Below are positions 5,135 to 50,753 of a DNA stretch of 64,000 nucleotides, piece by piece; position 1 is the first letter of the stretch, and the number at the start of each line of letters is the position of its first letter. Location of the stretch: assembly GCA_963711085.1 (NCBI GenBank), contig CAVQCT010000002.1:1227678-1291677 (forward strand), written 5' to 3'. Origin of the DNA: an uncultured candidate division Zixibacteria bacterium. GTDB lineage: Bacteria; Zixibacteria; MSB-5A5; GN15; FEB-12. The position numbers and the translations under genes were made by a program. A model generated the notes under the pieces. The model was not told the DNA's origin. It did no database searches and saw nothing but the letters and a program-made list of their open reading frames with translations.

Positions 5135-5335
5135 TGTCGTATTTTCCTCTCCGTTAAATTAAGCGTAAATATATACATTCTATCCGGTAAGGTCAAATGT
5201 AAACAGCAAGGTTATGTGACTTTTTTCACATATACAAGGGTAAAATTCAGCTATGTCCAAAAAAAATTTACTACTCCGGCTTCCTCCAAAATCCAATATC
5301 ACTGTGCCCGCACGGCTCAAGAATTCAGAATAGAG

Positions 5336-5363
5336 TTGACAAGACTGGTCCATGACTTATTTT
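5336..5363 (+). promoter_or_regulatory. Putative sigma70-type promoter of the MBL hydrolase gene
   Basis: TTGACA (5336..5341), 16-nt spacer, TATTTT (5358..5363). The homology-supported ATG at 5373 lies ~10 nt after the -10 element. Confidence 0.4.
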
Positions 5364-5372
5364 GACCCCCAT

Positions 5373-35822: not shown

Positions 35823-36533
35823 ATGGTTGGAGGACTGTTCAGCGGTCCCTTTTATCTGATGGAGACGCGTGAGCAGATGTATATCATTGGCATCGGTTCG
35901 CTCTATCTTGTCGCTCTCACTGGAATCTTTGCCGGGCAGGGGTTCGCGCTGGCTTTTTCAGTAGAACTGGCCGACTTCGGCGCCAAAGACTATCTCGGCC
36001 GAATCCTCTCAATCGCGATCCTCAGGGAGCTTGGGCCGGTGCTCACGGCACTCATGATCGCCGCGCGCGTGGCTGCCGGCATCACGGCAGAACTGGGCGC
36101 CATGAAGGCCTCAAACCAGCTCGATGCCATGGTGGCTTTCGGCATCGATCCAATCAAGAAGCTGGCGGTACCGCGGCTTATCTCGCTGATAATTATGGTG
36201 CCGGCTCTGACCGTGGCGTGCGATGCGATCGCACTTATTGGCGGGTATATCGTCGCCCTTCTCATCGCCCACGTGACCTCCACCATGTACTGGACGGCAG
36301 TAAGGGATAGATTGACCTTCGGAAACATGTTTGTCGGCTTGCTTAAGCCGTTTGTCTTCTCGTTCGTAATCGCATTCGTGTCTTGCTACAAAGGATTCTC
36401 CGCCGAAGGTGGCACCAAAGGTGTCGGACGGGCTACCACTGAGTCGGTCGTACTTTCTTCAATTTCGATCCTGGTCGTCAACTTCCTGATCACCAAGCTC
36501 GTCTTTTCGCTCATTAAGGGATGGCTGTTATGA
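35823..36533 (+). CDS. mlaE: MlaE-type ABC transporter permease
   Basis: Polytopic ORF with ILRELGPVLTALMIAARVAAGITAELGAMK, typical of MlaE. Homologous N-terminal sequence continues upstream of the ATG to 35736 with no ATG/GTG/TTG (see findings). Confidence 0.8.
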   Translation: MVGGLFSGPFYLMETREQMYIIGIGSLYLVALTGIFAGQGFALAFSVELADFGAKDYLGRILSIAILRELGPVLTALMIAARVAAGITAELGAMKASNQLDAMVAFGIDPIKKLAVPRLISLIIMVPALTVACDAIALIGGYIVALLIAHVTSTMYWTAVRDRLTFGNMFVGLLKPFVFSFVIAFVSCYKGFSAEGGTKGVGRATTESVVLSSISILVVNFLITKLVFSLIKGWLL

Positions 36534-37303
36534 TCGAGCTGAGAAATGTAACCTTTTCCTATGGCGAGAAACCGGTCCTTCAGGATGTCTCTTTTGTCGT
36601 CCAGACCGGCGAGTCGTGTATCATCATGGGACCTTCGGGTTCAGGAAAATCGACCATCCTTCGCCTCATCCTCGGGCTCAATTGTCCGCAGTCCGGGGCA
36701 ATATTGATCGACGGCCAGAATATCTGTACCATGAAGGAAAAGGACAAGCGGGAGATCCGCAAAGAGATCGGGATGGTATTTCAGGACGGCGCTCTGTTCG
36801 ACTCGCTGTCGGTCTGGGAGAACGTGGGATATTACCTTCTGGAGCACACTGATATGCCTGTCGAAGAGATCGGACAGAAAGCCGTAGAGATGCTGGGATT
36901 CGTCGGGCTCGACGCCGAGGAGATCCAGGATAAACTTCCGGAGCAGCTCTCCGGTGGAATGCAGCGGAGAGTGGCGATAGGAAGAGCGTTGCTGTCAACC
37001 GACCCGAAGATTATGCTCTACGATGAGCCGACAACCGGGCTTGACCCGCAGTCGACCGACAACGTACTGCACCTGATAACCAAGCTAAAGAACGAACGAC
37101 AGATTTCCACTATTGTCGTGACACACCAGATCGCCGATGCCATTTCGATCGCCGACCGTTTCGTGGTGATTCTCGATGGACGGGTGGCTTTCGACGGTAG
37201 TCTGATTGAATTGCGCGACTCGACTCACCCGGGGGTACGGGAGTTTCTTGGCCCGTTCATTGAGTCGTTTGGGCGAGTCGCCGATCGAAAATTCATAAGG
37301 TAG
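36521..37303 (+). CDS. mlaF: MlaF-type ABC transporter ATP-binding protein
   Basis: Walker A GPSGSGKST, signature LSGGMQRR, Walker B IMLYDEPTTGLD. It overlaps mlaE. Confidence 0.85.
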   Translation: MAVMIELRNVTFSYGEKPVLQDVSFVVQTGESCIIMGPSGSGKSTILRLILGLNCPQSGAILIDGQNICTMKEKDKREIRKEIGMVFQDGALFDSLSVWENVGYYLLEHTDMPVEEIGQKAVEMLGFVGLDAEEIQDKLPEQLSGGMQRRVAIGRALLSTDPKIMLYDEPTTGLDPQSTDNVLHLITKLKNERQISTIVVTHQIADAISIADRFVVILDGRVAFDGSLIELRDSTHPGVREFLGPFIESFGRVADRKFIR

Positions 37304-37375
37304 TAGCCAACGAAAAGATAATTGATGTAATGAATCGAATATTGCCCGTATGAATCGAACATAGAGGCTTGTAAT

Positions 37376-38311
37376 ATGAAACGAACGACAGTTATCAAAT
37401 GGGGTTCTCTCAAGATCGGGCTATTGCTCACCCTGGTCATTGCTGCCCTCTTGTGGGCATCGCTCAGCGGCGGCGGCACTTCGATCTTCGAATCCAAAGG
37501 GAAGTTTGTCTGCTACTTCCATAATGTGGAGGGGCTTGTTCCCGGTTCGCCGATCTGGATGTCCGGTGTCGAGGTAGGTAACGTCAGATCCGTTACTTTT
37601 GTCAACCTCGATTCATTGAGGCAGGTTGAGGTTGTCTGTCGGGTAAAGAAGGAAGTCTGGAATCGACTGACTTCGGATGCCCGGGTACAACTGGGTACGA
37701 TAGGTTTTCTCGGCGACAAGTATATCGAAATCATTCCGGGATTAGAGCCGGGCCCACCTATCCAGCAGATGGCTGTGATCAAGACCCGCGATGCGGGCAG
37801 TGCGACGAGGGTATTCAAGGCTGGTGAGATGGCCATTAATGACGCCAAAGGATCTGTGATGCGTTTGGATACGCTGCTTGCCGGGATGAACGCAGGTAAA
37901 GGAACTCTGGGGAAGATGGTGACTGATGACCGGATGTACAACGAAATCGTCGCTCTGCTCGCCAAATTGACCGTGCTGACGACCGAGCTTCAGAAGAACC
38001 AGGCCTCAATCACCAGCTCGATCGAGAAAACTTCTAATTCCCTCGAGAGCCTGAGCAGGAAGGTCGACGAAAACACCGGGACGGTCGGCCGACTGGTCAA
38101 CGATCCTCAACTCTACGACAACCTCGTCCTGTCGACTGCGAAACTTGATACCATTCTTCAGAAGATGAATCAGGCCCAGGGAAGTCTCGGCCTTTTGGTG
38201 AACGATACCGGCTTGTATGTGGAAATGACCAATCTGATGGCGCGCATGAATACGCTGGTGACGGACATTCAGGACAACCCGAGGAAGTACTTCAAGTTCA
38301 GCGTATTCTAG
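37376..38311 (+). CDS. mlaD: MlaD-type MCE-domain substrate-binding protein
   Basis: N-terminal TM anchor, MCE domain (GLVPGSPIWMSGVEVGNV), and a coiled C-terminal extension. Confidence 0.75.
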   Translation: MKRTTVIKWGSLKIGLLLTLVIAALLWASLSGGGTSIFESKGKFVCYFHNVEGLVPGSPIWMSGVEVGNVRSVTFVNLDSLRQVEVVCRVKKEVWNRLTSDARVQLGTIGFLGDKYIEIIPGLEPGPPIQQMAVIKTRDAGSATRVFKAGEMAINDAKGSVMRLDTLLAGMNAGKGTLGKMVTDDRMYNEIVALLAKLTVLTTELQKNQASITSSIEKTSNSLESLSRKVDENTGTVGRLVNDPQLYDNLVLSTAKLDTILQKMNQAQGSLGLLVNDTGLYVEMTNLMARMNTLVTDIQDNPRKYFKFSVF

Positions 38312-38322
38312 ATTGAAACGGC

Positions 38323-39309
38323 TTATCTGGTGCGGGCCGATGCGCGGATACCATCGAGAAGGAGTCGATACGGCGACTTCTCGGAATTGGCGCGAATCGC
38401 AGTGTAACACTGGTCGCAGAGATTGGTCGTGCTGAACTCGCGTCGAAGCTGTTCGCGCGAATCGTACCCTTGGCGATTCATTCCGCACGGGCTGACCTTT
38501 CCCCACGGTGTCACAATCAGGAAGCGATTGCCTGCCCGACAATCCTCTCTTCTTCCGGTCGCAAAGAATTTTACCATCTGTCTGAGCGTCCAGGCCGATG
38601 ACATGATCGGGTAGCCAGACTCTTGCATTGCGATCAGTTTCTCGACAACTTCCTTCAATTCCGCAAGGTCGTCCGGTTTGTTGATCAGATAGTGCTCTTT
38701 TCCGGTGCGAAGAGAATTGTAAGTGCTGAAGTTGATTGCGACCCCCCATTCACGGGCAAGGGCCGCCATGCGGGGAAGATCCCTGAAATTGTCGCTCTGG
38801 ACAACGCAGGCAAGGACGACGTCATCGTTTCCGTGAGCAACGATGATCTGGATTATCTCCGCGATATGCTGGAAGTTGTTCTTGAGGTTTCTGAAGATAT
38901 TGTGACGGCCATCCGGATAATCCAACGAAAATGAAAACTGGTCGATACCGGCATCGCGAAGTTCCAGGTAACGACCTTCATTGAGGTTCTGGACATTGGT
39001 GGTAATCACGAAGACGGCTACCGGGTCTCGGTCACGCATCGCACGGACGATTTGCACCAGGTCTTTGCGCAGCGTCGGCTCGCCGCCTGAAATCTGTGCA
39101 ACTGCCGGTCTCAACTCCTGAAGCCAATCGGCGAAGACCTCCCCCGACATCCGAGGTTCTTCGACATACTCCCCAAGATCGCAATGAGAGCATCGCGCGT
39201 TGCAGTTGTATGTAATCTCGAATGAGACGGTAATAGGCCGACCGATCATGATATTGAGGCCGGTGCGAGCGGCGATGCGAATCTTGCGGGCGGTTGACAG
39301 ACTATTCAT
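38323..39309 (-). CDS. Radical SAM protein with C-terminal Cys-rich (SPASM/twitch-like) region
   Basis: CNARCSHC (CxxxCxxC), an SGGEPTL glycine-rich SAM motif, and C-terminal C..C...CDQC cysteines. The internal ATG 39309 is preferred over track start 39354. Confidence 0.75.
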   Translation of the reverse strand: MNSLSTARKIRIAARTGLNIMIGRPITVSFEITYNCNARCSHCDLGEYVEEPRMSGEVFADWLQELRPAVAQISGGEPTLRKDLVQIVRAMRDRDPVAVFVITTNVQNLNEGRYLELRDAGIDQFSFSLDYPDGRHNIFRNLKNNFQHIAEIIQIIVAHGNDDVVLACVVQSDNFRDLPRMAALAREWGVAINFSTYNSLRTGKEHYLINKPDDLAELKEVVEKLIAMQESGYPIMSSAWTLRQMVKFFATGRREDCRAGNRFLIVTPWGKVSPCGMNRQGYDSREQLRREFSTTNLCDQCYTAIRANSEKSPYRLLLDGIRASARTR

Positions 39310-39500
39310 CGTCGAAAATCCCTTATTATCTTCGGTAACTACAAAACCTAGCACACGCCAACATTCAGGTCAACCAAAAACTGACCGTCCTGTCGGCGTT
39401 TGACGATCGGCTAATCGCATTCTTGTTGCCGTGGATTGTGACCGTCCGTATTTTGTCGCAAAGACCGGGTTGATGATTTATTAAGACAGGAGGTCACGGG

Positions 39501-40532
39501 ATGAAAATTCGTTTGCTTGGTACGAGCAGAACCTTGGCGGCTGGGATGTTGCTCACGGTTTTCAGTTACGCATTCACCGCATCATCGGCACGTTCAACTT
39601 CCCGGATACCGGATCATCCGGAGACTGTTGCCACTTTCTCGATCGTGGCGTGTGATACGATCAGGGGAGAACTGGGAGTTGCGGTAGCTTCACGATTTTT
39701 TGCCGTCGGCAGTGTTGTGCCCTGGGCCAGGGCTGATATTGGTGCGGTTGCTACCCAGGCGTACGCCAACACGACATTCGGACCGGAGGGGCTTAAGTTG
39801 ATGGCCGTCGGGCTCTCTCCAAAAGCCGCCCTTGACAGCATGCTCAAAACGGACAAGGACCCATCGCGGCGCCAGGTAGGGATGGTCGCCGCGGATGGAA
39901 GTTCATTCACATACACCGGTGACAGTTGTTCGTTTTGGGCTGGAGGAAGGTCCGGGCCGGGATATGCCATACAGGGAAATATCCTTACCGGTGATTCTGT
40001 CGTGGCCCGGATGGAAACAACGTTCTTGAACACAGATGGTACCCTGGCCGACCGAATGTATGCCGCGTTGCTGGCTGGGGATTCAGCCGGGGGAGATTCC
40101 CGGGGAAAGCAGTCGGCGGCATTGATAGTCGTGAGGAAAGGCGCCGGATATGGCGGTTACAATGATCGCGCGATTGATATTCGCGTGGACGACAATCCCG
40201 ACCCGTTCACCGAGCTGGGGCGACTGCTCAAGATCGGCGAGATGAATTATTCGTGGAATGAAGCCTGGACAGCGTTCACCCAGAAGAGATTTGCGGATGC
40301 GCTCCCGCTGATGGAGAGTACGGCGCAGATGGCGCCTGACAATGCCGAAGTACTCTATGACCTGTGCGTGATTCGGTTGGCGGCGGGAGAGAAGGGGGCC
40401 GCCCTCGATGCGCTACGGGACGCCATCGCGATCAATCCAAAGCTGTCCCGGCAGGCGGAAGGAGACGCCGACCTGTCGTCGCTTCGCTCCGACCCGGAAT
40501 TCAAGCGTCTGACGGCACCGGAGCCGAAATAG
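39501..40532 (+). CDS. DUF1028 (Ntn-hydrolase-like) protein with C-terminal TPR-like region, secreted
   Basis: A signal peptide is followed by TFSIVACD, the DUF1028 N-terminal nucleophile context, and AIQGNIL. The C-terminal ~100 aa are TPR-like. Confidence 0.7.
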   Translation: MKIRLLGTSRTLAAGMLLTVFSYAFTASSARSTSRIPDHPETVATFSIVACDTIRGELGVAVASRFFAVGSVVPWARADIGAVATQAYANTTFGPEGLKLMAVGLSPKAALDSMLKTDKDPSRRQVGMVAADGSSFTYTGDSCSFWAGGRSGPGYAIQGNILTGDSVVARMETTFLNTDGTLADRMYAALLAGDSAGGDSRGKQSAALIVVRKGAGYGGYNDRAIDIRVDDNPDPFTELGRLLKIGEMNYSWNEAWTAFTQKRFADALPLMESTAQMAPDNAEVLYDLCVIRLAAGEKGAALDALRDAIAINPKLSRQAEGDADLSSLRSDPEFKRLTAPEPK

Positions 40533-40549
40533 TCGCAACCTCAGCCGGA

Positions 40550-40987
40550 CTACTGGAGGCGCTCGACCCGCTGTTTGAGCGCCTCGTTCATTTTGTGAAA
40601 GCCTGATTCAGTATCCTGGCCCATCATCCCCCAGAGAATCGGCACCAACAGACCGTTGAACCTCTCGCAGTGGACAAATCTGGTTCGGCCGGGAGAGATT
40701 GCTTCAAGCACAAACTGGTGCTCACCATCGAACAGGCCGGGAACAATGAGTCGCCCGATCCACCGGAGCTCCCGGTTAGCTGTGAATCGAAAGATCTTCG
40801 GTCGGAATGTCATCATTCGCTTTTCTGACAGCCGGACCCGGATCCTGATGGTTGAGCGAACGCTTCCCTCTCCGGTTATCTCGGTGATGAACGGATTCCA
40901 CTGCGGATACGTTTTGAAATCGGTAACAACTCGCCAGATCTGTTCTGGCGATGCCTCAATGACGATCTCTGTGCGGATCTCTTTCAT
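40550..40987 (-). CDS. SRPBCC superfamily protein (polyketide cyclase/dehydrase-like)
   Basis: 145-aa ORF. IEASPEQIWRVVTDFKTYPQWNPF is the typical SRPBCC N-terminal pattern. Confidence 0.7.
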   Translation of the reverse strand: MKEIRTEIVIEASPEQIWRVVTDFKTYPQWNPFITEITGEGSVRSTIRIRVRLSEKRMMTFRPKIFRFTANRELRWIGRLIVPGLFDGEHQFVLEAISPGRTRFVHCERFNGLLVPILWGMMGQDTESGFHKMNEALKQRVERLQ

Positions 40988-41135
40988 ATATACCGGCCTC
41001 TGTTCATCGTGAGGAACTTAGCATCAATCAATTCGGTTATAGAATCAAATAAAGGTGACGGATCCGTGGAGATTCTCATTCAGATTGATTCTGCAACCCG
41101 CTGATCCGTTCCGAACCAATAAAGCCGGAGGAATC

Positions 41136-41330
41136 ATGAAAAGCAATACACTTATGTATGTCGCGGGGGCAATGGTCGGTTGTCTTGCGTTTGGGTATTT
41201 TCTGGGAAGAGAACATGAAGCGTACACGATAAAAAAGGCGATCCAGAAGAGCAAACTGAACCTGCGCGAGAGGGCGAGCGACGCGATTGACTCGATTGTC
41301 GACGGAGTGCGCGACAAAGTGCACATGTAA
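41136..41330 (+). CDS. Small single-TM protein (64 aa), function unknown
   Basis: ATG 41136 lies 5 nt after GGAGG. One TM segment (LMYVAGAMVGCLAFGYFLG) is followed by a charged helical tail. Confidence 0.4.
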   Translation: MKSNTLMYVAGAMVGCLAFGYFLGREHEAYTIKKAIQKSKLNLRERASDAIDSIVDGVRDKVHM

Positions 41331-41397
41331 GATGCGGTTTTCAACCAGTGGTAACCGGTTGATGGCGCTGCGATAACGGGACCGATGCAAATATTGC

Positions 41398-41426
41398 TTG
41401 ACAATATCGCCTGCGCAGTCTATATT
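41398..41426 (+). promoter_or_regulatory. Near-consensus sigma70-type promoter with no adjacent CDS
   Basis: TTGACA (41398..41403), exactly 17 nt, TATATT (41421..41426). Confidence 0.55.
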
Positions 41427-41432
41427 AGGTTC

Positions 41433-41565
41433 GTAAGGTCCGCCGATTGAGGACGTAGTGAGACGTTCTCGCCACGTAAAGTGACAGACCACGCGGACAG
41501 CTTACGGAAAACATATCAAAGGTTTATGTAACCCCCCTGACTTCGTTCAGGGGGGAATCTTTTTT
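41433..41565 (+). ncRNA. Candidate structured small RNA or cis-leader (unclassified)
   Basis: It is bounded by the promoter above and the terminator below. Hand-found pairings are GUAAGGUCCGC/GCGGACAGCUUAC (closing stem), the GAGGACGU-AGUGAG-ACGUUCUC hairpin and the CCAC-GUAAA-GUG hairpin. There is no plausible ORF. Confidence 0.35.
41532..41565 (+). terminator. Rho-independent terminator
   Basis: CCCCCCTGA (41532..41540) pairs with TCAGGGGGG (41547..41555), followed by AATCTTTTTT. Confidence 0.7.
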
Positions 41566-41677
41566 GCCCAAATCGCGCCTTATCTCTTGAATTCATCCTG
41601 CTCGTGTGCCACTTTTGTCCTGTTCGGCTGTTTAGCCTTTTGATACAGGTAACGTCGATAAGCTCGGGAGTCAGAAA

Positions 41678-42226
41678 TTGCTTAAGTGGATCATTATCGC
41701 TGCTTGCGTGCTGGTCATTTTTGTCGTGCGGATTGTTATGGGCCTGCTCAAGAACGTTCCGCAGATCTCGACGGCACTTTTCTATTCCTGTATTGTGCTG
41801 ACCGTGTTGGGTCTCTTCCTGGTCGGTTACAATGCCGACCGGCTCACCCGACTCAGTGCCCGAAAATCATGGCCGACCGCTCCGGGACGCGTGATCGAAT
41901 CGGAGGTTCACGGCACCGAGGCCATTCGTCCTCTGGTTGTGTACTCGTACGATGTCGGCGGGGTGTCGTACACCGACAGCAGCACACTGGAGGCTCCGAC
42001 CTTCGGCAACGGACGCAAGGAGTACGAAGTTGCCAGGGATCTGTCGCAGGAGCATCCGGAGGGGAGCTATGTCAGGGTCTATTATGATCCGTCAAATCCG
42101 GCTGAGTCGGTTTTGATGCCGGAAGCGCCGTGGGATATTTACGGCAAGATCGGACTCGGCGGCACGCTGCTTATGCTCGGTCTATTCGGAGTCCTGCTGC
42201 CGCGGAGGAAGATCTCCGCATCCTGA
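41678..42226 (+). CDS. DUF3592 domain membrane protein
   Basis: TTG start after GGGAG, two N-terminal TMs, the pattern WPTAPGRV...PLVVYSYDVGGVSY...YVRVYYDPSNPAESVL, and a C-terminal TM. Confidence 0.6.
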   Translation: MLKWIIIAACVLVIFVVRIVMGLLKNVPQISTALFYSCIVLTVLGLFLVGYNADRLTRLSARKSWPTAPGRVIESEVHGTEAIRPLVVYSYDVGGVSYTDSSTLEAPTFGNGRKEYEVARDLSQEHPEGSYVRVYYDPSNPAESVLMPEAPWDIYGKIGLGGTLLMLGLFGVLLPRRKISAS

Positions 42227-42236
42227 GGCTCCGAAA

Positions 42237-44093
42237 TCAGCCGCCCGCTTCGTTTTTCAATATCTGCTGATAGAGGCGGAGTGCGTCGCCGTTTTGGGGG
42301 TTGAGTCTGAGACACTCCTGAACGGCCTTCTTGGCATCCTCCTGCCTTCCCGATCGTGCATATGCATACGCAAGCCTCAGCATGACATTGTCGTTGAGCG
42401 GGAAGCGCTGTCGAGCCTGTTCCAATATTTTGATGGCGGAGGCGGGGTCGTTTCGGTCCATCAGGATGCCGGAGTAATTGATGTAAGTTTCAACTACATT
42501 GGGATCAACCGTAATAGCCTTGTAGAAGTAGTTGGCCGCCCCGGTAAGATCCCCGCGTCGCGCACTGATCAGGCCGAGGTTGTTGTAGGCATTGCCGTAG
42601 GTCGAATCCGCCAGCACCGCCTTCTTGAATTCGGTTGTCGCGGCGGCAAGGTTTCCGTCTTCAAGATACGCATTGCCGAACATCTGATAATCCTCAGCTT
42701 TCGTCCGATGCGGATCCAGCTTCAGCATGTCGTGATTACTCCCGAGCAACAAGAGCACGAACGTAAAACCCCAGAGGGCTGCATTTCCACTCTTATGATT
42801 ACGGATGAATCCAACCAGCCTTTCAATTGCGAATACCGCGAACAATAAGAGGAAGGGTATCATCGGTTGACGATAGCGGGCACAGACAAAGAAAGTCAGC
42901 AACGAAATCGTGTACGCTGTGAGGAACAGGTAAACGAGCAGGTATTTCCGCCACTCCCGGAGAGAGAGCACGATACCGATCAGGGCGAGCGGCGCCAGAA
43001 TGCCGAAAGGGAAATAGATCAGCTTCTTGAACAACAGCGGTTCGAGAATAGTCGCGTACTCACCGGCAATATAGATATCCTGGTTGTTCGGAATCTCATA
43101 GCCGTTGAACAGGAGACCGAGCTTGCGGACGGTGAGCGCGATGAAGCTGCGTGGTGAAGCTTTGATTTCGTTCCAGGCCTGCTGATACCAAAAGTCGGAA
43201 ACTTCGGATTTGGTCAGCTTCCTTCCCGTCGCCTTCTCTGCGAACGAGACTGCTTCACGATAGCCACCTTCCCAGCTGAAGTCGATACCAGGCACGGTTG
43301 CCGACCAACCTGAAGCCCGGCGATTGTTTCCAATGAAGAAATTGAAGCCGCCCTGCCAGGCGATAAACACTGGATCGCCTGAGACTTCGTAATTGCGTAT
43401 CGTCACCGGGAGGATGACTATAACTGAAGCAAGTCCAATAAGCGCATACCCGATTAGGGCGCGCTTCAGTCCGACTTTGGGTCTCACTTCAAGCCATGCC
43501 CAGATCGCGAGCGCCGGTCCGAACAAGAGAATGTTAGGCCGGGCCAGTCCCGCTGTGCCAAGAAGGAGTCCTGCGATTACCAGGTGATACCACTTACGGG
43601 CATCCAGGCGGTACAGCCACATCACCGTCAAAATGGAAAGCAGGACGATCAGAAAGGTGATGAGCAGGGTACTGTCGAAATAAAGCAAAGTCGGATAGAA
43701 GACCGCAAGCGCGGAAGCCCAGAAGGCAGTCTTTCGCCTGAATAGCCTGATCCCTAACAGATAGATCAGGACGGGCAGAAACGAGCTGAGTACGATCTGG
43801 ATCAGGCGCGATCCGTAGAGCGAACCGCCGGTTACCCGGAATACGGCGGCCAGAAAGTATGGATACAGCGGGGCGCGATAAAACGGCTCGGCGGGAAGAT
43901 TCTCGGCGGAGTTGATCTGTTTGGCCAGCTCGACATGATACTTCTCGTCCATGACGGGATGCGAAAAAGTGGGCATGGCCTGGATCTGGCTGAGGTAGAC
44001 CAGCCTTACTGAGAAGGCCGCGATATATATGAGCAAGGGGACCAGCCAGTTGGCCCGACGGGCCAATGGTTGGACGATTCGTTTCAAAGACAT
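42237..44093 (-). CDS. GT-C (GT39/ArnT/PMT_2-like) glycosyltransferase fused to C-terminal TPR repeats (paralogue of 24698..26860)
   Basis: 618-aa ORF with a first-loop VMDEKYH motif, many TM segments and C-terminal TPR repeats (AYNNLGLI..., RLAYAYARSGR...). Confidence 0.75.
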   Translation of the reverse strand: MSLKRIVQPLARRANWLVPLLIYIAAFSVRLVYLSQIQAMPTFSHPVMDEKYHVELAKQINSAENLPAEPFYRAPLYPYFLAAVFRVTGGSLYGSRLIQIVLSSFLPVLIYLLGIRLFRRKTAFWASALAVFYPTLLYFDSTLLITFLIVLLSILTVMWLYRLDARKWYHLVIAGLLLGTAGLARPNILLFGPALAIWAWLEVRPKVGLKRALIGYALIGLASVIVILPVTIRNYEVSGDPVFIAWQGGFNFFIGNNRRASGWSATVPGIDFSWEGGYREAVSFAEKATGRKLTKSEVSDFWYQQAWNEIKASPRSFIALTVRKLGLLFNGYEIPNNQDIYIAGEYATILEPLLFKKLIYFPFGILAPLALIGIVLSLREWRKYLLVYLFLTAYTISLLTFFVCARYRQPMIPFLLLFAVFAIERLVGFIRNHKSGNAALWGFTFVLLLLGSNHDMLKLDPHRTKAEDYQMFGNAYLEDGNLAAATTEFKKAVLADSTYGNAYNNLGLISARRGDLTGAANYFYKAITVDPNVVETYINYSGILMDRNDPASAIKILEQARQRFPLNDNVMLRLAYAYARSGRQEDAKKAVQECLRLNPQNGDALRLYQQILKNEAGG

Positions 44094-44228
44094 GAATCAA
44101 TTATAAGTCGCTTTAACGGTTATGAAAAGGGTGAAATCGGGCGGGGGGCGCCACACTGGCTCAGTTGGTTCAAATTGATGTGATGGAGGGACCGTTCCCG
44201 GGAGGTTGTTGTTTCCGGTTTTAGCCAC

Positions 44229-44257
44229 TTGACAACCCAAAACTCACGTATTATTAT
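44229..44257 (+). promoter_or_regulatory. Putative rrn promoter P1
   Basis: TTGACA (44229..44234), 17 nt, TATTAT (44252..44257). Confidence 0.5.
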
Positions 44258-44355
44258 TACCTGCCGAATATGTGACAGCAGCGTGAGTGCTCAGGCCTTA
44301 CGGCGGCACAGCGTCCGGCCGGAAAGGCGAAACGAAAAAAAGTTAAAAAAAGCAC

Positions 44356-44384
44356 TTGACTCTACAACGCCGGCTGTATATACT
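44356..44384 (+). promoter_or_regulatory. Putative rrn promoter P2 with upstream A-tract (UP-like)
   Basis: TTGACT (44356..44361), 17 nt, TATACT (44379..44384). It is preceded by CGAAAAAAAGTTAAAAAAAGCA. Confidence 0.6.
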
Positions 44385-44602
44385 CGGTGTCTGCCACAGA
44401 AATGGCAGTATTTTTTTCGACTGAATTGAAGTTCTTTGACAACTAAATAGCCATACGAAATCAAGAGTCGTAAAGACTCGACGATGTCGCGGGTCCAAGA
44501 TTTACCCAAATCTTGATGACATAACTTTTACAGTAAATTCTGAATCGCGCGTTCTAAATGTGCTGATTCGGGAGCTCAAACGGTAAATACATATTATTGA
44601 TA

Positions 44603-46157
<1,555 letters not shown>

Positions 46158-46307
46158 TAAGGAGTAGGTGTGCTTGGATTCATACTGTGAATCCAACATT
46201 ACTTAGTCAACCGACATCGAAACAGTCTCCGACTCTTGATTTCTGTGGCTATTTATATAAATTTGTTCGCGTTTTATTTTCGGCGCGTGGGCAGAAAGTG
46301 TTTGATC

Positions 46308-46381
46308 GGGCCTATAGCTCAGTTGGTTAGAGCGCGCGCCTGATAAGCGCGAGGTCAGTGGTTCAACTCCACTTAGGCCCA
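46308..46381 (+). tRNA. tRNA-Ile (anticodon GAU)
   Basis: Cloverleaf by hand: acceptor GGGCCTA/TAGGCCC, anticodon loop CTGATAA, T-arm AGTGG-TTCAACT-CCACT. No encoded CCA. Confidence 0.95.
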
Positions 46382-46401
46382 TTGAAAAAGACAAGTTTAT
46401 C

Positions 46402-46474
46402 GGGGATGTAGCTCAGTTGGGAGAGCGGTGGCTTTGCAAGCCACAGGTCACCGGTTCGATCCCGGTCATCTCCA
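46402..46474 (+). tRNA. tRNA-Ala (anticodon UGC)
   Basis: Acceptor GGGGATG/CATCTCC (including the G3:U70 Ala identity pair), anticodon loop TTTGCAA, T-arm ACCGG-TTCGATC-CCGGT. Confidence 0.95.
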
Positions 46475-46654
46475 GTAAAGCAAATAAGAAGTGTATTGAC
46501 TTAAATACATAGACGCCACGCCCGGCGTGGGTCGACTGCTCTTTGACAACTTCATAGTGTTTTTTTCTGATACGTCAGAAGTATCTTCCAATAGGCTGTA
46601 TCGTTGCAATAATACAGTATTAAAGATGCTCTTATGTTAACCAAATTAAAATTC

Positions 46655-49660
<3,006 letters not shown>

Positions 49661-49751
49661 ATAAATTTCTACAGAGAGAATCGGAAATACTATGCAGCGT
49701 GCAGCCTGTTGGGCGATGCTGAGTCATATCAGAAAACGCTATGAAAATATT

Positions 49752-49868
49752 CTCGGTGGCGATAGCGACGGGGTCACACCTGTTCCCATTCCGAACACAG
49801 CAGTTAAGCCCGTCTACGTCGATGGTACTACTCGGGAGACCGTGTGGGAGAGTAGAAAGCTGCCGGGT
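49752..49868 (+). rRNA. rrf: 5S ribosomal RNA
   Basis: CCTGTTCCCATTCCGAACACAG and GGTACTACTCGGGAGACCGTGTGGGAGAGTAG motifs. The terminal helix CTCGGTGGC/GCTGCCGGG pairs, including G-U wobbles. Confidence 0.9.
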
Positions 49869-49877
49869 TAAAATGAA

Positions 49878-49908
49878 CCCCTCTTGTGAAAACAAGAGGG
49901 GTTTTTTT
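49878..49908 (+). terminator. rrn operon Rho-independent terminator
   Basis: CCCCTCTTGT-GAAA-ACAAGAGGGG followed by T7. Confidence 0.8.
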
Positions 49909-49947
49909 GTGATTGCGAAAGGCGAGGCGAAATCCTATGATGAGTTT

Positions 49948-50753
49948 ATGAAAGGGTACAAGTTTCGAAATTGGGGCGAATGTTGCCACCGAAGGTTGCT
50001 GACTCACCGGGAAATATACTTCGCGTCGCCGAAGGAATTTAATGATCCTTTTGATTGTAGAATACCTCCGAGATATGACTTAGAGGACATTGACACTCTT
50101 CGGAATGTACTTACTTCAATGCGAGTCACCGGCCTGACCGGCTGGAATCATGCTCAAATTGACGCCGAAGTTCAAGAGAAAATCGATCTGATCAAAAATC
50201 CCGGTAGATACGAAGAGTGGGTGACAGAATCCTGCAAGATTTCGTAGGCGATGTAAGGGTGCTGTGTCTGGCTGGTAATTTGCGAAATGATCTCATGTGG
50301 CTAAATTACGCACAGTCGCATCAAGGATTCTGCGTTGAAATCGACATGGACATACTCAGGAATCATCTAAGGAACAAGTTTGAACCGTATCTAAATGGTG
50401 CGGATATCGTAGATTTCTCGGTAATCTATAGGGAAAACATGCCCATAATTCGGCCGGCGATTCTTGAGTCAGATGGCCAGCTGTTTGCGCCGATACAGTA
50501 TAAGTCGCTTGAATGGAGTTACGAAGAAGAATGGCGATTTGTGGTTTACGGAAAGATCGACTTCGATCCGAACCCTATCCCCGTGGATGCGATCACAAGG
50601 GTCCTCCTTGGATGTCAAATCAGCGAAGCACACCGGGATGAGATTATGAGTGTCGTAAGAAGAGAATTTCCTCATACATCAATTTTGCAGGCACGACGAA
50701 CACCGTACGATTTTGGATTGGCCTTTGACGATGTTACCGATGTGCGCTCATAG
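49948..50753 (+). pseudogene. DUF2971 family protein, frame-disrupted
   Basis: The N-part (MKGYKFRNW...EIYFASPKEFNDPFDCRIPP) and C-part (VRVLCLAGNLRNDLMWLNYAQSHQGFCVEI...KSLEWSYEEEWRF) carry DUF2971 hallmarks but lie in different frames. The switch window is 50208..50247. The track ORF's first ~70 codons overlap the 5S gene and terminator and are spurious. Confidence 0.6.

Follow-up and report, generated by a model that had tools for sequence, protein, structure and literature searches.

A conserved candidate small RNA gene with a three-way-junction fold in Zixibacteria-like bacteria

Results

The transcription unit and its surroundings

The window, that is, the whole 64,000-nucleotide stretch of DNA that was analysed, contains on its plus strand a predicted RNA of ~133 nt (41433..41565), preceded by its own promoter and closed by an intrinsic terminator. 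The −35 hexamer, TTGACA (41398..41403), is followed after 17 nt by the −10 hexamer, TATATT (41421..41426); this promoter, which the original prediction had placed at 41398..41426, was found there by consensus scan and matches 11 of the 12 consensus positions. Within the 10 kb examined (36000..46000), 11 of 12 is reached at just one further site, the rrn promoter at 44229, and the likeness to that promoter drawn earlier is a fair one. The 5′ end of the RNA was placed by promoter geometry, and the covariance model described below matches over its full length with 135.5 bits. The terminator (41532..41565), also recovered by consensus scan where a 9-bp G/C-rich hairpin with a U-tract had been reported, is composed of a 9-bp stem (41532-41555) and AAUCUUUUUU; the hairpin, CCCCCCTGA-CTTCGT-TCAGGGGGG (41532..41555), has nine pairs, seven of them GC, and is followed by AATCTTTTTT.

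No credible plus-strand ORF lies between promoter and terminator, and ORF inspection thus bore out what had been said of this interval. Nor is any ORF conserved among the 15 distinct members of the family, in which frame, start, length and peptide sequence all differ, so that no conserved leader peptide is encoded. The next gene, at 41678..42226, begins 112 nt downstream of the T-tract, close to the ~110 nt first estimated, and its product is a DUF3592 protein (Pfam E = 6e-13). The frequency of the signals themselves carries no weight, since consensus-type promoters and terminators are not above shuffled sequence in the 10-kb stretch (7 vs 6.7 and 10 vs 9.4 matches, respectively); function is therefore argued from the comparison with relatives.

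Several other elements were observed in the neighbourhood. Just upstream of the RNA, a 64-aa ORF (41136-41330, plus strand) has a hydrophobic N-terminal segment and no Pfam hit; it is 56–63% identical at the same position in loci L002 and L003, and is probably a real gene for a small membrane protein. An 11-bp GC-rich hairpin with T-rich flanks (40556-40585), in and just after the 3′ end of an SRPBCC gene (40550-40987, minus strand) and ~24 nt past the stop of a convergent DUF1028/TPR gene (ending at 40532), is probably a bidirectional terminator. On the other side, a full rrn operon (16S, two tRNAs, 23S and 5S) occupies 44603-49868, and two tandem consensus-like promoters precede its 16S gene (44603) on the plus strand, TTGACA-17-TATTAT at 44229-44257 and TTGACT-17-TATACT at 44356-44384, an arrangement that resembles an rrn P1/P2 pair.

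Homologues of the RNA

Loci for comparison were collected using as bait the 618-aa PMT_2/TPR glycosyltransferase encoded at 42237..44093 on the minus strand, which yielded 27 loci from species-representative genomes. The close ones come from metagenome-assembled genomes (MAGs) labelled Candidatus Zixiibacteriota or “uncultured Ignavibacteriales”, both of the FCB group. Searching related genomes with the RNA by nhmmer and blastn, as the original prediction had proposed, revealed conserved copies in L002, L003, L004, L013 and L015. In the first alignment of these homologues the −35 hexamer was invariant, the −10 hexamer was conserved, and the hairpin P2 (see below) changed in sequence yet stayed paired. 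A covariance model (R1) added L018 and two copies in L020, and a pattern built from the invariant positions, scanned over metagenome contigs, gave 31 loci, nine of them true members; the other 22 matches are attributed to chance, their number being about that expected from the information content of the pattern. Applying an improved model (R2) to the other 42 loci did not enlarge the family. Altogether the family comprises 18 copies with 15 distinct sequences, scoring 47–135 bits, all from MAGs and metagenomes of one lineage that carry the labels Zixibacteria or Ignavibacteriales (FCB group). The neighbouring PMT_2 protein is 50–76% identical across the lineages that keep the RNA unit. A phage origin was considered and rejected, the family pattern having no match (0) in viral_contigs.

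The promoter is retained throughout: none of the 15 distinct homologues departs from TTGACA, which mostly reads (C/G)TTGACA(A), often has A/T-rich sequence upstream and is followed, at a maintained spacing of 17 nt, by (T/G)ATA(T/C)T-like −10 hexamers. In every one of the 15 members the G that opens helix P1 sits 28–30 nt after the −35 element, where the start site is expected, and the 5′ end of the RNA is therefore predicted to be base-paired. Promoter, RNA and terminator are thus conserved together in 15 distinct relatives and, as shown in the next section, the helices covary, which agrees with the proposal of an orphan unit making a structured RNA of ~130 nt. The flagged stretch is almost certainly a real, conserved and independently terminated RNA gene, and the sequence predicts that this gene, with a consensus promoter of its own, yields a non-coding RNA of ~133 nt that folds into a three-way junction and ends in a terminator.

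L020 carries two divergent paralogues about 3 kb apart, at 2063-2199(−) and 5230-5368(−) (also L058 and L059). Copy a (81 bits) is followed by the gene for a TMEM260-like glycosyltransferase, copy b (47 bits) by a DUF3592 gene. The latter copy is syntenic with the RNA of the window, yet it is the most divergent in sequence, and its minimum free energy (MFE) fold is without the three-way junction. Two further kinds of weak match were inspected. In the window, matches to the RNA models at 49821-49966 on both strands, just after the 5S rRNA (E 0.02–0.05), reflect a terminator-like hairpin only and are not a second copy of the RNA. At L009:5862-5941(+), in another Zixibacteria MAG and ~60 nt upstream of PMT_2, an A/U-rich linker joins a short hairpin to a terminator; the element scores 24 bits, has no three-way junction and is probably the terminator of the upstream gene.

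Secondary structure and covariation

The MFE fold of 41433..41565 (−47.8 kcal/mol, z = −4.0) is not equalled by any of 200 dinucleotide shuffles. It reproduces the arrangement that had been folded by eye, a closing stem around two hairpins in the manner of a three-way junction, with the ACAUA/UAUGU hairpin and then the terminator following. The junction comprises nucleotides 1–73 of the RNA; its hairpins P2 and P3 abut each other, and a strand of ~7 nt leads back to P1.

The closing stem P1 is built of a 5′ strand at 41433..41443 (P1a, GUAAG, 41433-41437; P1b, GUCCGC, 41438-41443) that pairs with 41493-41498 and 41501-41505. Its 3′ strand, GCGGAC-AG-CUUAC (41493..41505), which is supported by both the MFE fold and covariation, contains an A-rich bulge of 2–3 nt. 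P1a has the form G-N-A-A-G / C-U-U-N-C, with four invariant pairs and one that covaries freely (GC in 6 members, UA in 5 and AU in 4). P1b, of 5–6 bp, shows compensatory changes in all seven of its pairs in the model-fitted alignment and in four of five in the MAFFT alignment. The strand that follows, J1/2, is variable and measures 3–5 nt.

P2 (41449..41470) appears in the MFE fold as GAGGACGU-AGUGAG-ACGUUCUC. Its GGG/CCC base is conserved, while the distal stem and loop differ completely in length and sequence between members, the shortest stem having 8 bp and others being longer and interrupted, up to more than 14 bp; despite this divergence, the region still forms a hairpin in nearly all members. 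P3, GCCAC-GUAAA-GUGAC (41471..41485), is supported by covariation and follows P2 with no junction nucleotide between them. The small hairpin originally drawn here, CCAC-GUAAA-GUG, does exist, but it is better read as a 5-bp stem that includes a C.A pair, being in the window G-C / C.A / C-G / A-U / C-G. The second pair (41472 and 41484 in the window) is a C.A mismatch in nine of the 15 members, C-G in four and U-A in two, the middle pair covaries (GC 10, AU 5), and the loop always has five nucleotides of variable sequence. One possibility for the C.A is a protonated C.A+ wobble, another that it serves recognition. The junction is completed by J3/1, AGACCAC (~7 nt, 41486..41492), identified by column conservation, the first A of which is found in 14 of 15 members.

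The helices adjoining the junction are conserved as GNAAG/CUUNC, GGG/CCC and GCCRC/GYGRC, and their pairs hardly ever flip orientation. The information content is 1.69 bits per column in P1a, 1.55 in P3 and 1.25 in the base of P2, vs 0.69 in the linker and 0.36 in J1/2.

Covariation, another check put forward with the original prediction, was counted on two alignments of the 15 distinct sequences. In the model-fitted alignment, 91.5% of cells are paired and 18 of 29 pairs show compensatory change, values that none of 500 shuffles reached; when the partners were slid by 1–3 columns, only 42–55% of cells remained paired. Because fitting to a model biases an alignment in favour of the modelled structure, an independent alignment, obtained with MAFFT and RNAalifold, was counted as well; P1, the base of P2, P3 and the terminator all reappear in it. 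Here, 92.5% of cells are paired (39–53% when slid by 1–3 columns) and compensatory change is found in 14 of 25 pairs, again with 0 of 500 shuffles reaching the observed values. The proposed helices thus covary beyond both the shuffles and the slid controls, and the recovery of the same helices, with covariation, from an independent alignment indicates that the structure is real and under selection.

Between the junction and the terminator lies an A/U-rich linker (41506..41531), 16–29 nt long across members and predicted to be unpaired in most. A few nucleotides before the terminator it carries an AAGUUU-like motif (AAGGUUU at 41519-41525 in the window), which is present in 13 of 15 members and absent in L015. 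The additional ACAUA...UAUGU hairpin expected here (41511-41515 with 41525-41529) is part of the MFE fold of the window but fails as a conserved element, being predicted in the window and L003 and not in the other 13 members; it was rejected as a feature of the family consensus. The terminator is retained in all 15 members, its 5′ arm always a C-run (C-run/G-run), its stem 100% paired and, in the model-fitted alignment, five of its eight pairs with compensatory changes. A pseudoknot between the P3 loop and a linker UUU(A/N), an idea that arose by eye from apparent G-C to C-G swaps, was rejected as unsupported (mean contiguous run of 4.07 for cognate vs 3.89 for non-cognate combinations).

Genomic context

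The RNA is found in several arrangements. In L018, L055 and copy a of L020, it precedes a TMEM260-like glycosyltransferase gene and then a ComB-like phosphatase gene, with DUF3592 further on; in L013 and L044, it precedes the ComB-like gene, facing the convergent PMT_2 gene; and in the window, L002, L003 and copy b of L020/L058, it precedes DUF3592, again facing convergent PMT_2. In L004 and L015 it directly faces the 3′ end of PMT_2, the stop codon of which lies 82 and 23 nt, respectively, past the end of the RNA. In the PMT_2 neighbourhood, the gene content between RNA and PMT_2 therefore shrinks stepwise while the RNA unit is retained, and in L004 and L015 promoter, RNA and terminator persist without a co-directional gene downstream. 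Three contexts are unrelated to this neighbourhood: L047, where a GDSL lipase gene follows; L051, where an FKBP gene lies upstream and no co-directional ORF of at least 110 aa downstream; and L052, where a convergent DUF1731 epimerase gene ends 15 nt from the RNA. In L004, L015 and L052, a convergent gene thus ends 15–82 nt past the terminator of an intact element.

In ten of the 13 contexts the terminator is followed after 60–180 nt by a co-directional gene, and the interval lacks a strong sigma-70-like promoter, a missing 9-of-12 match within ~100 nt being weak evidence. Some read-through into the downstream co-directional gene is possible. The DUF3592 genes of L014 and L017 have no RNA upstream, and in both a TTGACA hexamer precedes the gene. 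At L014:8400-8470(−), TTGACA is accompanied 18 nt downstream by CATATT, from which a short 5′ UTR would follow; at L017:8430-8630(−), no −10 hexamer was identified and ~200 nt separate TTGACA from the start codon.

An antiterminator was sought by folding the nascent transcripts up to the terminator loop. In these thermodynamic predictions the C-run is unpaired or paired only locally in 11 of 15 members, the junction staying intact and the 5′ arm of the terminator having no alternative partner. The downstream genes do not form, across contexts, the coherent class in a 5′ UTR arrangement that marks a riboswitch or attenuator, whereas the sequence does display the marks of a stand-alone small RNA: its own promoter and terminator, conserved with the RNA, and retention independent of the neighbours. 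Given the varied downstream genes, the convergent contexts and the lack of a conserved antiterminator, a stand-alone small RNA is favoured over a leader. The original prediction had left the choice between a stand-alone sRNA and a riboswitch or attenuator leader open; the evidence favours the former, and the latter loses ground on these same three counts. The RNA probably acts in trans rather than as a leader.

Membrane glycosyltransferases of the GT-C type (PMT_2/TPR and TMEM260-like), a ComB-like 2-phosphosulfolactate phosphatase and DUF3592 recur together near the RNA across the lineage, in L018, L055, L020, L013 and L044, and may represent a functional set for envelope glycosylation.

Comparison with known RNAs

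At gathering thresholds, Rfam 15 recognizes in the whole window only the rRNAs of the rrn operon and two tRNAs. When 41330..41700 was scanned permissively (E ≤ 10), the only match was GA-cis, on the opposite strand and with 15.6 bits vs a threshold of 34.7, a sub-threshold match that corresponds to the terminator hairpin, and a scan of five divergent member loci (E ≤ 5) returned nothing on the RNA. The impression that the element matches neither SRP RNA, 6S, RNase P, tmRNA nor the common riboswitches is thereby upheld with covariance models, and the same holds for Y RNA/YrlA, every riboswitch class in Rfam and the motifs known from the FCB group. SRP domain IV, 6S and hammerhead were also rejected by eye, the junction strands being 4–5/0/7 and not 7/4/1, as was a K-turn in P1, there being no tandem G.A pairs. 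GGUCCG and GUAGUGAG, which the window presumably has in common with human Y1, are not conserved in the homologues, and a Y RNA was rejected.

The purine aptamer (RF00167) is similar in size and layout, being likewise a three-way junction of ~70 nt with P1, P2 and P3, followed by a terminator; in the window alone, the P3 loop CGUAAAG also resembles purine L3. The Zixibacteria RNA differs, however, in the zero length of J2/3, in loops that are not conserved and in not lying consistently in a 5′ UTR. The variation of P2 from 8 to more than 14 bp makes a fixed loop-loop contact impossible. This candidate was rejected, with no covariance model match at E ≤ 10.

6S RNA and CsrB/RsmZ are abundant RNAs that bind proteins; 6S RNA is a long helix with a central bubble, and CsrB exposes repeated GGA loops. 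The Zixibacteria RNA shares with 6S and CsrB/RsmZ a stand-alone gene, a strong promoter and a function that would depend on structure, but it has neither a bubbled long helix nor repeated GGA loops, and no Rfam match. The chaperone-dependent sRNAs of Proteobacteria have their own promoter, a length of ~100–150 nt, an A/U-rich single strand before a U-tailed terminator and paralogous copies. Promoter, size, A/U-rich stretch before the U-tailed terminator and paralogues are all shared by the Zixibacteria RNA; unlike them, it is most conserved in its junction helices and not in a single-stranded seed, and its 5′ end is paired.

In kind, the closest relatives are lineage-specific orphan RNA motifs such as Chlorobi-1, Acido-1 and Cyano-1, and the Zixibacteria RNA is a member of none of them. 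Chlorobi-1 (RF01696), Acido-1 (RF01686) and Cyano-1 (RF01701), non-coding motifs that came from comparative genomics, are presented by Weinberg et al. 2010 (PMC2864571, Table 1) as confined to a single phylum-level lineage, supported by covariation, judged not to be cis-regulatory and of no known function, points on which the present family resembles them; Chlorobi-1 also belongs to the FCB group. The Zixibacteria RNA differs from these three in giving no match to their Rfam models and in its own fold of three-way junction, linker and terminator. A search of the literature on Zixibacteria and RNA found no described non-coding RNA.

Discussion

Conservation in this family peaks in the helices that touch the junction, and their pairs hardly flip, as would be expected of a surface that a partner reads sequence-specifically. 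The pattern fits an abundant RNA recognized by its three-dimensional core, protein-binding or possibly an aptamer, and fits a condition-specific, seed-pairing regulator less well. Our main reading is that the RNA acts in trans and works by junction recognition, through the binding of a protein, and we would give it a probability of roughly 45%. The promoter, equal in quality to the rrn promoter of the window, suggests that the RNA would be made constitutively and abundantly, and its transcript would end at the intrinsic terminator. Function would then depend on the conserved core, formed by GNAAG/CUUNC, GGG/CCC and GCCRC/GYGRC with its recurrent C.A. A protein would be the most likely partner, whether the RNA forms a ribonucleoprotein with it or titrates it, and the linker with the AAGUUU motif, together with the terminator and U-tail, may form a 3′ module for stability or chaperone binding and possibly a secondary pairing site.

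The main alternative, which we hold tentatively, is that the RNA is a base-pairing regulator assisted by Hfq, ProQ or another chaperone, in which case the junction would be a stabilizing 5′ domain, the (UAUC)AAGUUU linker the seed, and the terminator with its U-tail the chaperone site. The autonomous promoter and the U-tailed intrinsic terminator would suit such a regulator, as would a linker for which most members show no predicted pairing, an AAGUUU-like motif that 13 of 15 retain despite a completely changed distal P2, and the two divergent paralogues of L020, which recall many sRNA families. The linker is, however, less conserved than the junction helices (0.69 vs 1.5–1.7 bits per column), its motif measures only ~6 nt and is lost in L015, and an invariant consensus promoter would be unusual for a condition-specific regulator. 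Targets do not emerge either: the reverse complement of the motif occurs three times in the window vs 0.94 expected, one of these being the RNA's own locus and the other two not linked to a gene start, and RNAduplex pairing with the translation-initiation regions of PMT_2 in eight genomes is equal to that of shuffles (z ~0). A tblastn search with E. coli Hfq and CsrA gave no hit in 519 kb of locus sequence, which is uninformative, as these are not complete genomes.

It appears unlikely that the RNA is a leader acting in cis, whether as terminator-type riboswitch or as attenuator, and governs read-through into a membrane or glycosylation set of TMEM260-like, ComB-like or DUF3592 genes. An aptamer-sized three-way junction with a conserved core, followed by a terminator, is what such a leader would look like, and the downstream genes do recur in one neighbourhood (TMEM260-like/ComB in L018, L055 and L020a; ComB in L013 and L044; DUF3592 in the window, L002, L003 and L020b), the next co-directional gene mostly lying within 60–180 nt and with no strong sigma-70-like promoter of its own in between. 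Yet 10 co-directional neighbours in 13 are within the chance expectation for bacterial gene order, and the element is kept intact facing convergent gene ends (L004, L015 and L052, at 15–82 nt) and in the unrelated contexts of L047 (GDSL lipase) and L051 (no co-directional ORF of at least 110 aa). Conversely, the DUF3592 genes of L014 and L017 do without it, with TTGACA upstream, and in 11 of 15 members the predicted nascent transcript keeps the junction and offers the 5′ arm of the terminator no alternative partner.

Riboswitch-containing sRNAs are exemplified by EutX/Rli55 and SreA. That the present RNA is an orphan aptamer acting in trans, its junction binding a small molecule so that it serves as a ligand-dependent sRNA or sponge, is improbable: the combination of a conserved junction core and loops that vary at the periphery is aptamer-like and the genomic position is that of a stand-alone gene, but there is no similarity to any Rfam riboswitch model, the nascent-transcript folds contain no alternative structure, and no gene association hints at a ligand. 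Finally, a non-functional chance pairing of promoter and terminator, or a terminator serving convergent neighbours, for which one could cite promoter and terminator matches not enriched over shuffles in the region and a hairpin that might at the same time terminate the convergent gene in L004, L015 and L052, is effectively refuted by the compensatory changes in all helices and by conservation of the whole unit across lineages in which PMT_2 is only 50–76% identical.

Returning to junction recognition, a bolder form of this reading, which we regard as speculative, is that the junction core is the binding site of a dedicated protein or small molecule and that the RNA is the defining part of a ribonucleoprotein not known before, or else an aptamer RNA that acts in trans, confined to Zixibacteria-like bacteria and expressed at housekeeping level from an rrn-grade promoter. 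If it is true that the core binds a protein or ligand, the family would represent a functional class of RNA not defined before; were it an ordinary regulatory sRNA, it would be a useful but unsurprising addition.

We know of no cultured representative of the Zixibacteria. On the comparative evidence from 15 distinct sequences, the RNA described here constitutes a new lineage-specific family of a known kind, predicted from sequence. The family is suited for inclusion in Rfam, where it would improve the annotation of Zixibacteria-like MAGs, and its consensus promoter provides a clean example of sigma-70-type promoter usage in the phylum.
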